DNA of 64,000 nt, taken from NCBI GenBank assembly GCA_945877575.1, contig CAMDUE010000003.1:88174-152173 (forward strand). Reading direction: 5' to 3'. The translations under genes were made by a program, and so were the position numbers. The first letter of the stretch is position 1, and every line of letters begins with the position of its first letter. This DNA comes from Chitinophaga pinensis (lineage in GTDB: Bacteria; Bacteroidota; Bacteroidia; NS11-12g; UBA955). Below, piece after piece: positions 3,372 to 63,326 of the stretch. The notes under the pieces are model-generated. The model was not told where the DNA came from and ran no database searches. It saw nothing but the letters and a program-made list of their open reading frames with translations.

Positions 3372-4640
3372 TTACTTCATCAGTTTGTAAAGGAATTCCA
3401 AATTCACCTCATCTATTCTTGTCATACCATTGGATTTAATTACCGTTTGGGCATTGACAATCTGTACATTGAAATAAGGCAACAACTGTGATAGATCAGT
3501 TGCTTGACTTTCACTCAATTCAACGGCTTTGCTAAAATCAAATCCCAAAGGGGTACAAATGAGCATTGCTGCATACTTTACTTCATCTGAATTCTTAAAC
3601 AAAGCCTTATCAGCTTCTGTCAATTGACTGTTCCTCAAATCAGGAAACGTCTTCACCATGCGCTGCACGTTCACAAACTTAGATTCAAACCCTTGTATCA
3701 TCCAGGCTGCAGAAATGTATTTACCAGTTTTAAATGGTAGAGGGGTGTTGGTAGTTGGTACTGGGTTGTTGGTAGTTGGTAGGGGGTCGTTGGTAGGGGG
3801 CAGAGGGTCGGGGGTAGTTGGTAGACTGTCTTGATTTATTACTGAGCCGACGGGGAATTCACTATATAGTAGTCTTTTTCCATAGCGATAACGGTCTTTA
3901 TTTACCATGGCAATATAATTTTGCATATTGTCTTGGCGGTAGTTGATTCTAAATTTGACTTTTTTGGAGGTATTTTGAAGTTCATGAATCACTACCTCTG
4001 GAATGGCCGTCCAATTCAATACGAAGCCTGCCCCTAAAACTGCACCAATGGGGGCTAATATTAAACCTGCTACTGGCTCTTCAATTTCATAATTCACAAT
4101 AACAAAGGTAATAATCGCACCAGCAACAGCACCAACAGAACCATCTCTAATCAACTTATCTTCTAAGGTATTTCCGCGTCTGATATACCAAATATCATTA
4201 TATGGCACAAAGCCCAATTTCTTGACTGATTTTCGATACAAATAAACTCCGTTTGAATCTGCTGCAATTAATTTCCCTTTTGTAAGCTTCCGTTTTTGAG
4301 AAAAGATCTTGTCTTTCCTTTTTTGATCTCCGAATTTCAAATAAACCTGCTGTCTTACTAAACCACTCCTTGAAAACTGTCCAATTGACATTTTCACTTT
4401 ATAATAAGGCGTCTTCTGTAAGCGATATCTATTTCGCAGAGAATCAAGCAGTTCTTGGGTGATATCGTAATATGAAATGGTGCCAAGATTCGTATTATTT
4501 AAAGGCGGCAAAGGTCTATTGGAAATACTGAGAGCCGATTCGCTTCCACTTCCCATAAGTCCTTGCCCGAAGGAATATCCCCCGGAAAAAAAAGAAAAAA
4601 CTAACGCAATAATCCTTAAAGACAAAGCACTTTTTTGCAT
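3372..4640 (-). CDS. hypothetical membrane protein with a Pro/Thr-rich repeat linker
   Basis: There is an N-terminal signal or TM segment and an internal PTTPDPLPPTNDPLPTTNNPVPTTNTPLP repeat (a GTTGGTAG DNA repeat at 3740..3830). Hydrophobic segments follow downstream. There is no recognisable catalytic domain. Confidence 0.5.
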   Translation of the reverse strand: MQKSALSLRIIALVFSFFSGGYSFGQGLMGSGSESALSISNRPLPPLNNTNLGTISYYDITQELLDSLRNRYRLQKTPYYKVKMSIGQFSRSGLVRQQVYLKFGDQKRKDKIFSQKRKLTKGKLIAADSNGVYLYRKSVKKLGFVPYNDIWYIRRGNTLEDKLIRDGSVGAVAGAIITFVIVNYEIEEPVAGLILAPIGAVLGAGFVLNWTAIPEVVIHELQNTSKKVKFRINYRQDNMQNYIAMVNKDRYRYGKRLLYSEFPVGSVINQDSLPTTPDPLPPTNDPLPTTNNPVPTTNTPLPFKTGKYISAAWMIQGFESKFVNVQRMVKTFPDLRNSQLTEADKALFKNSDEVKYAAMLICTPLGFDFSKAVELSESQATDLSQLLPYFNVQIVNAQTVIKSNGMTRIDEVNLEFLYKLMK

Positions 4641-7572: not shown

Positions 7573-7624
7573 AAAAGAGATACCCTATTGTAAATGATTA
7601 ATATTTACAATAGGGTATCTCTTC
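7573..7624. terminator. rho-independent terminator-like hairpin (about 20 bp perfect stem) downstream of the TonB-dependent receptor gene
   Basis: aaagagataccctattgtaaa / tttacaatagggtatctctt is a perfect inverted repeat with a ~10 nt loop. It lies 30 nt past the minus-strand stop at 7653 and is followed by T-rich sequence on the minus strand. Confidence 0.5.
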
Positions 7625-13144: not shown

Positions 13145-13175
13145 ACAAAGAGCACTCCAAATTGGAGTGCTCTTT
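13145..13175. terminator. perfect 13 to 14 bp hairpin downstream of the 13196..15196 gene
   Basis: caaagagcactcca-aat-tggagtgctctttg, read directly from the sequence. Confidence 0.55.
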
Positions 13176-13195
13176 GTTAACTTTTTGTTATTGAA

Positions 13196-42919: not shown

Positions 42920-45225
42920 TATATAGCCAATCCCATCAAATACCGCAAAGCCGTTTTTACCACTCGTCCAGCAAATTCATAGTGCGATTCAGATCCTCCG
43001 GAAACGCAGTACAAGGAGAATCTCGTTAATATCAAGCTTTTTAAAGAATAGCGCGCCGTTTTTACATATTCCAACCAATCTTCATCTAAAAGAGCTGCAT
43101 GTTTCTTTGCGTGTCCCTCGAAATCATCATACGGCAAGTCTAGAAAGCTCAAAAACTCCATGATGTCGCGGTGAGGATAGTCGTTCATGCATAATTCCCA
43201 ATCGTAAATCACGGGCTCACCGTTGTTCAATATCATGATATTCCGTGGATTAAAATCATTGTGAATGACACAAATACGCGAACTAAGTGTAGAGAACTCA
43301 AGTTCCAATTGACTCAATTGTAACGATTCCAAACAACGAAAATCAACTTCGTCAAACTGAATATCTTTGCGAACGGAATCCAAAAATAATGCATTCAATC
43401 GTTGATAGAATTTCATTGCCTTCCAAGGCCGTTGCAGTGGAAACTCATTTGCAATTTCAGCTTTGAATTGAAGATTATGGAAATCATGAATCGCTTCAAT
43501 ACAAGCATCTATATCACCCAAACTCCATTTTTCAGGCTCATTCTCGCAGTTCAGAATCTTTGTTTCTGTTGGATGTATGAACCGTTGAAGAAGCAAATAA
43601 ATCTCTCGCTTTTCATCTTGTTTGATGCCAAATAATTTGGGAAAATACGGATATTCAACCTCGTTAAGCCATTGAGCCATTGAAACTTCTTTCAGATGGC
43701 ATTGATCAAATTCTAGTTTCTTTCTGTCTTCCAAAATGGCAGCAGCTAAGGCAGAATCAATTCCACTGGCTACCAAATGCAACCCTTTATAAACTTCTTC
43801 ACTTGTGGGTCTAGACTTCAATAGCACACGATCAACTTCGTTGATCTTCAACAAATAATAGCCTTGCAACTTCGAAGTGACCCGAGTGGTCAGCTGGGTA
43901 ATGATACCGTTATCAAAATACTCGTGACTTTGCCACTCAATTTTTTCTACTTTAGATTTGTAGGAATCATACAAGCAGGCCCTCAGAAAATCAACATCCA
44001 CTTCCGATTTCAACAACCAATCAACTGGTTTATTTCGTCCTAACTTTTGATGCGCTCGAGCAAATTCTCCACTAACAATGGCTCCAAAAGTAGAAATCTC
44101 TAACCCTAGAGCCGCACCCGCAATGATCCTAGAAAAACGCTGTAATTGACCACGGCCATGACAACCCATCATCTGAAGTGCTTCTTTTTGCTTGGGAAGA
44201 TGAGTACCACCGCCCACGGTTCCAACCACTAAATTGGGAAACGTAATTTCAAAACAAAGTCCTTTTTGCGTCTTTTCAATATTCAAAAACGCCGTTGATG
44301 ATTCATGCAAACACGCTGCATCTTGCCCAGTAGCCAAAAATATCGAAGCCAAGGCATTAGCTACATTGATATTGTAACCCACCATACCTTCTTTTTCAGC
44401 AGCCTCTTTCGAAGGATGATAGAATTTGAAAAATTGATTTGAATCTACCCTTAATACATCTTTCAACACTTCGTCTGAAACCTCTACCGACGCAGATACT
44501 TTGCAACCGCGGCCATGATCAATGTTGTACTGAGATATTTTCTTATCGGCGGCGCCATTTCCTTCAATGACATAATCTAAATGCACATGGGGATACAGTT
44601 CCCCAAACTCTGCCGCAATATGCAACAAAGCATGCCAAGTGCAAGTAGTTGTCATATTTTGACCCGCTGCATCACCCGTTTGGTAATAAAACTTGGTATT
44701 TAAATTAGATCCAAATACATCTGTTTTCATTTCGAGTAGCTTGGCGTGATTGCTGTAAGACTCAGCCACTGATTTAATTTCTTCAAAATGGGAGTTTAAA
44801 TATTCTTCAAGCAATTTCGCATTTTGATTTGAATCCAAAATAAACAGTGGCGCGCGCAACATTCGTTGATAATGAAAGTCAGAATCAAATCCTCCTGAAA
44901 GAGCGATTACGCGAGCTCCGCGATTCATGGAATACACCAATGCACCTTCAAGGGTTGCGGCGGGTAAAAAAACAACTTCAGCTGGAAATTCTGATAATTC
45001 TTTATATGCAATGGGACCAACCAATCCAACGGGAATTTCAACGCTACCAACAAAAGATTCGATGTTGTGATTGATTTCATCAAGGGGAAGCTGATGGCTG
45101 AAAAGTCGAGACGAGTCTAATTGCAAGCCCTTCAAAAAATCTTGCCTCAACAAAACCGCTTGGCTTGTGTTAAACCCTCTTCCTGGTACTTTTGGTGCTC
45201 TATCAAAAAAATGCCCCTCTGACAT
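42916..45225 (-). CDS. fusion protein: HMG-CoA-reductase-like domain (N-terminal ~400 aa) plus an APH/choline-kinase-type phosphotransferase domain (C-terminal ~350 aa)
   Basis: The N-terminal half has HMGR class I-like blocks (...GSVEIPVGLVGP..., DAAGQNM, GTVGGGT). The C-terminal half has the APH catalytic loop IHNDFNPRNIMI and the DWE metal-binding block IYDWELCMND. Confidence 0.65.
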   Translation of the reverse strand: MSEGHFFDRAPKVPGRGFNTSQAVLLRQDFLKGLQLDSSRLFSHQLPLDEINHNIESFVGSVEIPVGLVGPIAYKELSEFPAEVVFLPAATLEGALVYSMNRGARVIALSGGFDSDFHYQRMLRAPLFILDSNQNAKLLEEYLNSHFEEIKSVAESYSNHAKLLEMKTDVFGSNLNTKFYYQTGDAAGQNMTTTCTWHALLHIAAEFGELYPHVHLDYVIEGNGAADKKISQYNIDHGRGCKVSASVEVSDEVLKDVLRVDSNQFFKFYHPSKEAAEKEGMVGYNINVANALASIFLATGQDAACLHESSTAFLNIEKTQKGLCFEITFPNLVVGTVGGGTHLPKQKEALQMMGCHGRGQLQRFSRIIAGAALGLEISTFGAIVSGEFARAHQKLGRNKPVDWLLKSEVDVDFLRACLYDSYKSKVEKIEWQSHEYFDNGIITQLTTRVTSKLQGYYLLKINEVDRVLLKSRPTSEEVYKGLHLVASGIDSALAAAILEDRKKLEFDQCHLKEVSMAQWLNEVEYPYFPKLFGIKQDEKREIYLLLQRFIHPTETKILNCENEPEKWSLGDIDACIEAIHDFHNLQFKAEIANEFPLQRPWKAMKFYQRLNALFLDSVRKDIQFDEVDFRCLESLQLSQLELEFSTLSSRICVIHNDFNPRNIMILNNGEPVIYDWELCMNDYPHRDIMEFLSFLDLPYDDFEGHAKKHAALLDEDWLEYVKTARYSLKSLILTRFSLYCVSGGSESHYEFAGRVVKTALRYLMGLAIY

Positions 45226-45287
45226 ATCAAAGGGGCAAATATATCGTGTTAACAGACAATTGATTTACGATTTATCACAAATCGCAA

Positions 45288-61735: not shown

Positions 61736-62143
61736 ATGAAATACTTTTTATTGTTTCTGGGGATGTTTTTATCGCTTACTTCTCATGCTCAAACACCCGA
61801 TATCAATGTGGTCGACCTTGACGCTATGACCGGCCCTGATTATGTACAAGCAAGCTACCCCGGAGGAAATGAAAAGTTCTACCAATTCATATCTAAAAAT
61901 ATTCAGTATCCCGCACGCTGCATGGATGAAAATATCCAAGGAGAAGTGCGCATCCAATTCACGGTTAACAAAAACGGCGAACTGAGCAACTTCAAACCCA
62001 TTAAAAAGGTTGATGCCTGTCCAGAATTCACCCACGAAGCCATCCGCATACTTAAAAAATCAAAACGCTGGAATCCCGGCACCAAAAACGGACTTCCAAT
62101 CAACAGTTATTTCGCCATTCCGTTGAAGTTTAATTTACAATAA
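61736..62143 (+). CDS. secreted TonB C-terminal-domain-like protein
   Basis: Signal peptide, then YPGGNEKFYQFISKNIQYPARCMDENIQGEVRIQFTVNKNG…WNPGTKNGLPINSYFAIPLKF, which matches the TonB_C fold pattern. I took the start at the second Met. Confidence 0.55.
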   Translation: MKYFLLFLGMFLSLTSHAQTPDINVVDLDAMTGPDYVQASYPGGNEKFYQFISKNIQYPARCMDENIQGEVRIQFTVNKNGELSNFKPIKKVDACPEFTHEAIRILKKSKRWNPGTKNGLPINSYFAIPLKFNLQ

Positions 62144-62145
62144 TG

Positions 62146-62336
62146 GTACTAGGTACCGGGTACCGGGTACCGGGTACCGGGTTTCAGGTACCGGGTTTCG
62201 GGTTTCGGGTTTCGGGGTTCGGGGCTCGGGTACCGGTTTACGGGCTGCAGACCACGGACCACGGACCACGGACCACGGACCACGGACTACCGACTACCGA
62301 CTACCAACTACCAACTACCAATTACCGCCTACCAAC
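62146..62336. repeat. GC-rich array of degenerate heptanucleotide tandem repeats, about 26 units
   Basis: (GGTACCG)x4, (GGGTTTC)x3, GGGGTTC, GGGGCTC … ctgcag … (CCACGGA)x5, (CTACCGA)x3, (CTACCAA)x3. It sits intergenic between convergent genes. The 62143..62340 ORF is only a translation of this repeat. Confidence 0.85.
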
Positions 62337-63326
62337 ATAAACAAGCGCATTCTTTCCCTCGCCTACCGTGTAGTATTTTCGGGAATCGTTTGACCAACAA
62401 ACCGCTTCGCCTTGGGTTTCGATTTTGTAGGGTACAACCTTGGGTTTCTTGCTTAAAGCAGATGTAAGGGGCTCACCGTCGTTGCGGTCCCAAATAAATA
62501 TTTGTCCGTAGTTCTTGATGAGAATCTGGCGTCCATCTGGACTAATATCCCCACCAACCAAACCACTGAAAGGAAGTTGAGCCACCTTTTGCAAAGTGAT
62601 TTTTGACTGTCCCACGGGAACTACGAAAGGATATTCGGCCTTGTAAACACGGGCCTTTGCTTCGCGCTTGGTGACAATGTATAAATGATGGCTCCAGGGG
62701 TCAACCAACAGAGTCTCGGCATCGCGAGGGCCATCGGGATAAACAAACGTTAGTTTTTCGGCAAACGGAACAGAAGTATCCCCAGCGGCTGATGTCAAAA
62801 TAGGTTCGGGGAACCTGTAAATATAAATCTCCGGGTAAACTGCGTTGTTGTCTCCAAAATCAGCCAAATACATGTACTTTTTGCCGTCTATGGGATTGTG
62901 ATCTATGCCCATGTCTTCGCAATCTCGGTTTGAAAAACCAGGCACGGTGATGTGTCTGATGTTTTTTCCTGTAGTATCAAAAACAAAAAATCGATTGAAA
63001 TCTCCGCCGTCATTGTGTCCGTAAAGCCAATCGTTTCGGTAGGTGCAGGCCGCCAAGCCAGAATTTTCTTTGAGGCCCGGATTTTCCAAGGAACCAATCT
63101 GCACAAACGGTCCAAATGAACTATCCAAAACAACATCGCTCACTGAATAATTGAATTCGGTGTACACTTCTTTCCAAGGATCAGGAGTCTGAGGCGGATA
63201 CAGGCCGGGTTTTTGACATCCCCAACAAATAAATCCCGCGAAAAATGCAACAATAGTTTTCAATTGAAGTACCTGCCTCGTCATATAATTGTGCAAATTA
63301 TAATTATTTTTGGGACATGCAATCAC
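62322..63326 (-). CDS. hypothetical lipoprotein (possible beta-propeller fold)
   Basis: The internal Met followed by TIVAFFAGFICWGC looks like a lipoprotein signal, so the true start is probably near 63284. The last 4 codons overlap the repeat array. Confidence 0.45.
   Translation of the reverse strand: MIACPKNNYNLHNYMTRQVLQLKTIVAFFAGFICWGCQKPGLYPPQTPDPWKEVYTEFNYSVSDVVLDSSFGPFVQIGSLENPGLKENSGLAACTYRNDWLYGHNDGGDFNRFFVFDTTGKNIRHITVPGFSNRDCEDMGIDHNPIDGKKYMYLADFGDNNAVYPEIYIYRFPEPILTSAAGDTSVPFAEKLTFVYPDGPRDAETLLVDPWSHHLYIVTKREAKARVYKAEYPFVVPVGQSKITLQKVAQLPFSGLVGGDISPDGRQILIKNYGQIFIWDRNDGEPLTSALSKKPKVVPYKIETQGEAVCWSNDSRKYYTVGEGKNALVYVGRR

Follow-up and report, generated by a model that had tools for sequence, protein, structure and literature searches.

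Simple sequence repeats (SSRs) in contingency loci, for example the tetra- to heptanucleotide repeats of Haemophilus and Neisseria, bring about phase variation. STRRs are dispersed, multi-copy intergenic tandem heptanucleotides of heterocystous cyanobacteria, which have defined units and vary from strain to strain; Mazel et al. reportedly described in 1990 the cyanobacterial STRR heptamers CCCCAAT, TTGGTCA and CAACAGT. The STRR report on Calothrix PCC7601 is cited by Rehm et al. (2015; PMC4692102), whose own work deals with G-rich heptamer SSRs of the types GGGAATC and GGGGATT in Xanthomonas and Nostoc. These repeats comprise up to 26 units, are under-represented in open reading frames and are located preferentially 50 bp or less from a stop codon, with the G-rich strand being the coding strand (PMC4692102). 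Between 70 and 75 “convergent” inverted pairs are found per Xanthomonas genome, the repeats are mostly transcribed, and the formation of G-quadruplexes (G4) was demonstrated by CD (PMC4692102). Length and sequence vary extensively between close relatives, and neither a link to phase variation nor a function was found (PMC4692102). According to the summary of Mrazek, Guo & Shah (2007) given in PMC4679880, heptamers are the commonest class of long SSRs (LSSRs, units of 5–11 nt) and polymerase slippage is invoked for them; in the summary of the same work in PMC4692102, longer repeat runs are described as commoner in non-pathogens whose genomes are large and GC-rich. Finally, MacGregor (2015; PMC4679880) reported TAACTGA heptamer repeats from Beggiatoaceae, cyanobacteria and five Bacteroidetes. 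Some of these arrays reach 43 units and are mixed with other heptamers, and close relatives have shorter, repeat-free spacers (PMC4679880).

Here, we describe a heptanucleotide array in a window of 64 kb (the whole stretch of DNA that was analysed). It is a heptamer LSSR that shows most features of the repeats described by Rehm et al., and it is neither an STRR nor a contingency locus, a canonical terminator or a member of a known RNA family.

The array and its flanking genes

The locus consists of two convergent genes and the repeat between them:

61736..62143, plus strand: TonB_C gene for a small secreted protein of 135 aa, counted from the ATG at 61736 (Pfam TonB_C, E=1.6e-13; NCBIfam tonB_Cterm)
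62147-62335: heptamer array of 27–28 units in a single 7-nt register with zero indels
62147..62244, plus strand: G-rich half of 14 heptamers of the type NNNNGGG (GGGTACC, GGGTTTC, GGGGTTC, GGGGCTC)
62245..62251, plus strand: centre unit CTGCAGA, which shares the register of both halves and at which the predicted hairpin turns
62252..62335, plus strand: C/A-rich half with CCACGGA (five times), CTACCGA (twice), CTACCAA (three times), TTACCGC and CTACCAA
62322..63284, minus strand: convergent gene for a 320-aa hypothetical protein, taken from the list of open reading frames, with a signal peptide and the possible lipobox FICWGC

The TAA stop codon of the TonB_C gene occupies 62141-62143 and the first heptamer starts 3 nt beyond it. 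On the other side the stop codon of the minus-strand gene (62322-62324) lies inside the unit TTACCGC, and the last four codons of this gene (V-G-R-R) are contained in degenerate units. From 3 nt past the TonB_C stop to TTACCGC the array fills the convergent spacer and reaches these four codons, just as the first-pass annotation of this DNA had it. Read from 62147, the order of units in the left half is TACTAGG, four times TACCGGG, TTTCAGG, TACCGGG, three times TTTCGGG, GTTCGGG, GCTCGGG, TACCGGT and TTACGGG.

Tandem Repeats Finder returned overlapping arrays of period 7, 14 and 21 across 62152-62336 with scores of 63–92. In the autocorrelation scan no strong lag-7 signal besides that of the array appeared in 64 kb, and at lags 4–12 almost no other signal was seen across the 64-kb window. 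A C-rich heptamer pattern had five matches in the array against 0.00 expected from 100 shuffles. The GC content is 61% in the array versus 36.2% in the 64-kb window, and the head-to-tail copies of a unit within the range of 5–11 nt extend far beyond chance length, which defines a heptanucleotide LSSR. A GC-rich heptanucleotide array in AT-rich surroundings had been recognised from the beginning, and its 7-nt register is indeed unbroken; only the count of about 26 consecutive 7-mers has to be corrected to 27–28 units. The repeated KpnI sites pointed out on the same occasion are present as well (six copies of GGTACC in the array versus eight in the remaining 64 kb), but they carry no signal, as the six alleles presented below contain 6, 6, 3, 2, 0 and 0 of them. 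With these counts, a significance of the sites for KpnI cleavage or restriction-modification was rejected.

Another repeat of the window is found at 3735-3825 within a minus-strand ORF (3372-4640) for a 422-aa hypothetical protein. This 7/14/21-nt array with the unit CTACCAA/TACCAAC encodes a Pro/Thr-rich linker, PTTPDPLPPTNDPLPTTNNPVPTTNTPLP. The Logan contig L132 breaks exactly at this array; in the ENA contig L131 its sequence is the same as in the window.

An exact-protein look-up showed that the identical TonB_C protein is on record in other assemblies. The 320-aa protein matches no Pfam or NCBIfam family. Its own protein family comprises 802 homologues at E<=1e-10, which are mostly unnamed; the few named ones originate mainly from Bacteroidota (Cryomorphaceae, Saprospiraceae, Limibacter and Pedobacter), and some homologues carry the Por_Secre_tail of the type IX secretion system (T9SS). 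Genes in the neighbourhood of the array also encode T9SS sorting domains (Por_Secre_tail, CHU_C), and these domains together with the named homologues point to a member of Bacteroidota as the host. A plus-strand ORF of 65 aa (62143-62340), which overlaps the TonB_C stop in the sequence TAATG, was considered as a further gene and rejected since it is frame-shifted or shortened in other alleles: only 6 aa remain in L127, and L254 and L255 have no ATG. Because this ORF is not conserved across alleles the array is to be regarded as non-coding, which agrees with the initial description of the 7-nt period.

The similarity to the repeats described by Rehm et al. concerns several features. The units consist of GGG(G) plus 3–4 nt and form at least four consecutive G-tracts (chains of four and six in the window); the array is non-coding, begins 3 nt past the TonB_C TAA, is G-rich on the sense strand and resembles in size the described repeats with their up to 26 units; a G-rich array is followed by a C-rich one with the potential to form a stem-loop; and there is variability between relatives and no connection with phase variation. 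However, the units GGGTACC, GGGTTTC, GGGGTTC, GGGTAGC and GGGCTAC deviate from the consensus GGGAATC / GGGGA(C/T)T, the host is a low-GC member of Bacteroidota, and the C-rich half, instead of being the reverse complement of the G-rich half, is built from related units that keep to its register (a single base separates GGGCTAC from GGACTAC). As to dispersal and over-representation, a single intergenic array was counted in the 64 kb and about 10 kb of adjoining flank. G4 formation of the described repeats was shown by CD, whereas the potential of the array presented here is expressed by sequence scores (G4Hunter about 1.0 over the left half).

As far as LSSRs are characterised in the two summaries mentioned above, the array agrees with them as an intergenic head-to-tail 7-nt repeat whose unit-step polymorphism is consistent with polymerase slippage, and it differs in being isolated in a genome of 36% GC. 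With STRRs it shares the intergenic position of tandem heptamers and the variability between strains, and some units are similar (TGACCAA, which is complementary to STRR2, compared with GGACCAC and CTACCAA), but neither the unit sequences nor the taxon fits, and no dispersal is seen in the 64-kb window. The TAACTGA repeats are comparable in being intergenic heptamer arrays of Bacteroidetes with shorter, repeat-free spacers in relatives; they have another unit, and most sets are found just upstream of start codons, whereas this array is situated downstream of two stop codons. With contingency loci it has in common that a slippage-prone tandem repeat adjoins the gene of a putative surface protein. 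In contrast with them it lies outside the promoters and, apart from the four terminal codons already mentioned, outside both ORFs, and changes in unit number leave the proteins unchanged. As regards REP or MITE elements, the window contains no second composite copy, and only the coding 21-nt array at 3735-3825 shares CTACCAA.

Alleles and relatives of the locus

The locus was retrieved from ENA, Logan and NCBI assemblies by exact-protein look-ups of ATG-start ORFs; the TTG- or GTG-start versions of the flanking ORFs had no exact protein match. At least nine independently assembled contigs from these sources contain the array at this locus, and this excludes the assembly artefact that the first-pass annotation had named as a possible refutation. 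Six of the contigs span the whole spacer, which measures 199 (window), 192, 185, 171, 234 and 255 nt from the TonB_C stop to the conserved AAGCGC, with unit counts taken from short-read assemblies; all these lengths equal 3+7n. Between the six full alleles the proteins on either side do not differ or share an identity of at least 89%, and both stop codons are at fixed positions in all of them. The comparison of unit numbers between strains that had been proposed at the outset therefore reveals six lengths from 171 to 255 nt in steps of seven between nearly identical flanks, i.e. a copy-number polymorphism of whole units among close relatives. Whole-unit length variation between closely related strains is real.

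The arms contain 14/13, 14/12, 15/10, 9/14, 15/17 and 18/17 units (left/right). The window and L003 are just one CCACGGA unit apart (five versus four), and L254 and L255 have 33 versus 36 units next to an identical neighbour protein (P0002). The composition of the blocks changes as well: L127 has GGGTAGC blocks in place of GGGTACC, and in L253/L002 as well as in L254/L255 there are blocks of GGGCTAC, GGGTATC and ACTACAG. Of the first five short-read contigs, four break off within the array, as is to be expected when five identical units (35 nt) exceed a 31-mer and strains are mixed.

An array is also present directly 3' of the stop codon in relatives with 97%, 89% and 78% protein identity, and in the 78% relative it consists of different units (TTTTCGG, CTGACGG). 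Two relatives with 58% identity have no array. There, the homologous gene converges on a nitroreductase gene with a spacer of 1 nt. In these two contigs (L258 3001-4576 and L260 3001-4573) the homologous gene encodes 312 aa and the TonB_C gene is found elsewhere, after a Band_7 gene. This different gene order suggests that the TonB_C gene was relocated in the lineage of the window and that the repeat occupies a new junction. The missing array in the 58% relatives further means that it can be dispensed with. Judged from these comparisons, the array is long-lived at this site yet dispensable.

Even the array-less homologues with 58% identity have their C-terminus in the same position as the 320-aa protein (xYxGxxx). 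Among the alleles the 7-nt register, the polarity with a G-rich part followed by a C-rich part, the position and the presence of GGG in every left half are kept, and unit sequence, unit number and the ratio of arm lengths are free. Persistence down to 78% identity together with the kept polarity and the kept GGG may be signs of a constraint for which purely neutral evolution does not account.

Hairpin, G-quadruplex and terminator potential

The arrangement of a G-rich half, CTG(C/T)AG and a C/A-rich half is kept in all six alleles; the centre unit reads CTGTAGA in other alleles. The plus-strand RNA is predicted to form a long imperfect hairpin with -53 to -94 kcal/mol in the six alleles, and in all of them it folds better than unit-order shuffles (z = -1.7 to -4.1). 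For the minus strand the corresponding fold is weaker (z = -1.4 to -2.6) because the G-U pairs become C-A mismatches. When the window was compared with dinucleotide shuffles z amounted to -1.87 on the plus strand and -0.66 on the minus strand. The predicted hairpin is only modestly better than its controls.

The units are partially self-complementary: GGTACC pairs with itself, GGTAGC with GCTACC, and GGGUUU with GGACC via G-U pairs. The two halves are related in two ways, namely as direct repeats with one substitution (CTACGGG/CTACGGA) and as near reverse complements (TAGTGGG is the reverse complement of CTACCCA). Whether the C-rich half should be read as an inverted copy of the G-rich half appears ambiguous on these grounds; as judged from the units, the complementarity comes from their partly palindromic nature and not from a clean inverted duplication. 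Co-variation of arm lengths was considered as a sign of a selected stem and discarded, as the arms vary independently in the six alleles, which one would not expect under strong selection on a stem.

The region 62158-62244 contains 11 tracts of three or more G, arranged in chains of four and six; two units have no GGG, and two GGGG tracts lead to loops of 3 nt. No other canonical G4 motif occurs on either strand of the 64-kb window. As to the at least ten GGG runs spaced exactly 4 nt apart that had been proposed, the tracts as such are confirmed and number 11, but their spacing is not uniform since they are split into two chains and some loops have 3 nt. At the level of sequence the suggested G4 potential holds: at least five consecutive G3 tracts are kept in every allele, with G4Hunter scores of 0.74–1.08 over the G-rich half and maxima of 1.1–1.9 in 25-nt windows. 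The gquad-aware minimum-free-energy RNA fold of each allele contains a hairpin with the C-rich half and no G4.

Comparison of the array with Rfam 15 gave no family at the gathering score; the best one, mir-9209 with 29.8 bits versus a cut-off of 90, is a low-complexity artefact. A consensus scan for intrinsic terminators in the array revealed none on the plus strand and a 5-bp stem at chance level on the minus strand. There is no U-tract 3' of the hairpin on the plus strand and no T-run after the array. Canonical hairpin and T-tract terminators occur elsewhere in the window, at 13145-13177 (bidirectional stem of 15 bp), 7576-7622 (20 bp) and 45212-45237 (11 bp), and these strong terminators indicate that the genome uses classical terminators at other gene ends.

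Paired arrays elsewhere and the possible role of the locus

A scan of JGI metagenomes for four copies of GACYACN yielded at least 120 arrays (L133-L252), mostly in contigs of 50–70% GC, and the locus under study is absent among the matches listed. The inspected arrays are mostly intergenic and often abut stop or start codons. For 27 of the 120 arrays listed, a second array in inverted orientation lies 300 nt away or less (0 and 1 in the controls), and 26 of these 27 pairs start with the GT-rich arm and continue with the AC-rich one, which is the polarity of the locus described here. Many of the pairs (e.g., L216 1265-1351, L167 1634-1719, L204 12194-12465, L185 2810-3016) are near-perfect palindromes by stop or start codons. 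The single arrays listed show no clear preference under a crude ORF model, with 44 being GT-rich on the sense strand after a stop codon versus 33 AC-rich ones. In the same contigs (654 kb) there are 83 further heptamer arrays with unrelated units, and the numbers of arrays with periods of 5, 6, 8, 9, 10 and 11 nt are 13, 15, 8, 2, 3 and 0, respectively. So many unrelated heptamer units besides so few other periods speak for a propensity that is specific to the 7-nt period and not to one sequence. A special role of the GACYAC core was considered and dropped because of these 83 arrays.

Octamer arrays with a GACYAC core (GGGACCAC, CGACTACC and others) were found in many named phyla by a GACYACNN scan of genome contigs (L006-L125), for example in Alistipes (L009, L017), Verrucomicrobiae (L025, L076), Anaerolineae (L027), Streptomyces (L047) and Gemmatimonadales (L012). 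In these contigs period 8 is dominant, with 140 arrays versus 48 of period 7, and the octamer arrays have no bearing on the locus of the window. Some octamer arrays follow a GT- or G-rich array in the same polarity, such as (ATGGGGGG)n then (GACCACTT)n in L012, and likewise in L020 and L031.

The first-pass annotation had also considered a structured terminator or insulator. A selected bidirectional terminator or insulator, or a stabiliser of the mRNA 3' end, the structure of which is kept during drift of its sequence, would agree with an array that occupies the entire convergent spacer, where there is no other terminator. It would also agree with the polarity kept in six alleles, whose plus-strand folds all beat unit-order shuffles, with a position persisting to 78% protein identity, and with the inverted partners within 300 nt of 27 of the 120 metagenome arrays listed (0 and 1 in the controls), many of which form near-perfect palindromes after stop codons. 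The 70–75 convergent pairs that Rehm et al. (2015, PMC4692102) report for each genome of Xanthomonas fit in with this, too. Such a function is nevertheless rather unlikely in view of the plus strand without a U-tract, the weak minus-strand fold with its C-A mismatches, the modest z-scores, the lack of co-variation between the arm lengths and the spacer of just 1 nt that suffices in the 58%-identical relatives. Quite improbable is an element acting through G-quadruplexes, which would form either in DNA (the plus strand is the template strand of the 320-aa gene) or in RNA of the TonB_C 3' UTR and would block the polymerase or modulate mRNA stability. The 11 G3+ tracts as sole canonical G4 motifs in 64 kb, the five or more consecutive G3 tracts in every allele with 25-nt G4Hunter maxima of 1.1–1.9, and the CD experiments in which G3N4-type repeats (GGGAATC, GGGGATT) gave G4 (PMC4692102) are compatible with it. 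However, the gquad-aware fold returns a hairpin without G4 in each allele, the inspected GACYACN metagenome arrays mostly have GG runs only, so that G4 is not general to such arrays, and Rehm et al. did not find a regulatory role either (PMC4692102).

The first-pass annotation had suggested that changes in repeat number lead to phase or antigenic variation of the C-terminus of the putative lipoprotein. A contingency locus in which unit changes switch or alter this C-terminus or the expression of the 320-aa protein could account for the hypervariability of the array and for terminal degenerate units that encode four lineage-dependent last residues (VGRR, SGSR). Its probability is nonetheless next to negligible: the variation in unit number is located entirely 3' of both stop codons, the stop of the 320-aa gene is fixed, the proteins are identical across array lengths, the C-terminal differences are substitutions, and homologues without an array end at the same place. 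The spacing of promoters is unaffected as well, since the array is downstream of both genes. We consider it very improbable that the array belongs to a dispersed or mobile family of REP-, MITE- or STRR-like repeats with copies at many loci in the genome. This interpretation could draw on the four of five short-read contigs that break in the array, on the second heptamer/21-nt array with CTACCAA at 3735-3825, where a contig breaks too, and on the frequency of GACYACN arrays in metagenomes (at least 120 loci). Yet five identical units, which with 35 nt exceed a 31-mer, and the mixture of strains account for the contig breaks, and none of the 120 metagenome loci listed resembles the window outside the repeat itself. 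Furthermore, no second intergenic array of this kind occurs in the 64-kb window or in about 10 kb of additional flank in L253, so the identical arrays at many loci for which the first-pass annotation had advised to search are not seen in this range.

In our opinion the array is probably a non-coding, minisatellite-like heptanucleotide SSR that fills the 3' spacer and changes by gain and loss of units, with a possible structural effect and without a phase switch. A long SSR made up of blocks of unit variants in one register would have colonised the whole spacer between the convergent genes, and it would evolve through gain and loss of whole 7-nt units together with the spread of unit variants; the whole-unit steps point to slipped-strand mispairing or unequal exchange as the cause. 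As these changes touch neither a reading frame nor a promoter, the array is tolerated and persists with fast turnover of its sequence. Owing to the partly self-complementary units and the polarised halves, the plus-strand transcript (the 3' UTR of TonB_C) can form the long imperfect hairpin, and the G-rich half might adopt G-quadruplexes when single-stranded. The effect, if any, would be structural and would not depend on the exact sequence, presumably that of a barrier or a 3'-end stabiliser between the converging transcription units. A barrier role between the convergent transcripts seems possible to us, if doubtful.

A wider interpretation is that polarised heptamer pairs, which on both strands have a G- or GT-rich 5' arm and a C/A-rich 3' arm, represent a selected intergenic structure shared across phyla, of which this locus would be a Bacteroidota example. 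It is compatible with the inverted partners of 27 of the 120 metagenome arrays listed, the common polarity of 26 of these 27 pairs, the convergent pairing in Xanthomonas and the conservation of polarity and position down to at least 78% identity, and we think it unlikely. If such a class were selected, it might serve as a bidirectional transcription insulator or as a platform for nucleic-acid-binding proteins, with its placement being kept and its sequence turned over via slippage.

Heptamer SSRs are known from Xanthomonas, cyanobacteria and a few members of Bacteroidetes, and this locus is an ordinary example of them. The array is of little consequence for the two flanking genes, as it changes neither protein, and it accounts for the breaks of short-read assemblies in this place. 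With co-occurring alleles in sister samples it provides a natural high-resolution strain marker for an uncultured Bacteroidota population. It also adds a low-GC Bacteroidota case together with a series of alleles to the poorly understood G-rich heptamer SSRs adjacent to stop codons. If the polarity bias of paired heptamer arrays should prove to be general and functional, such loci would be convenient test cases.
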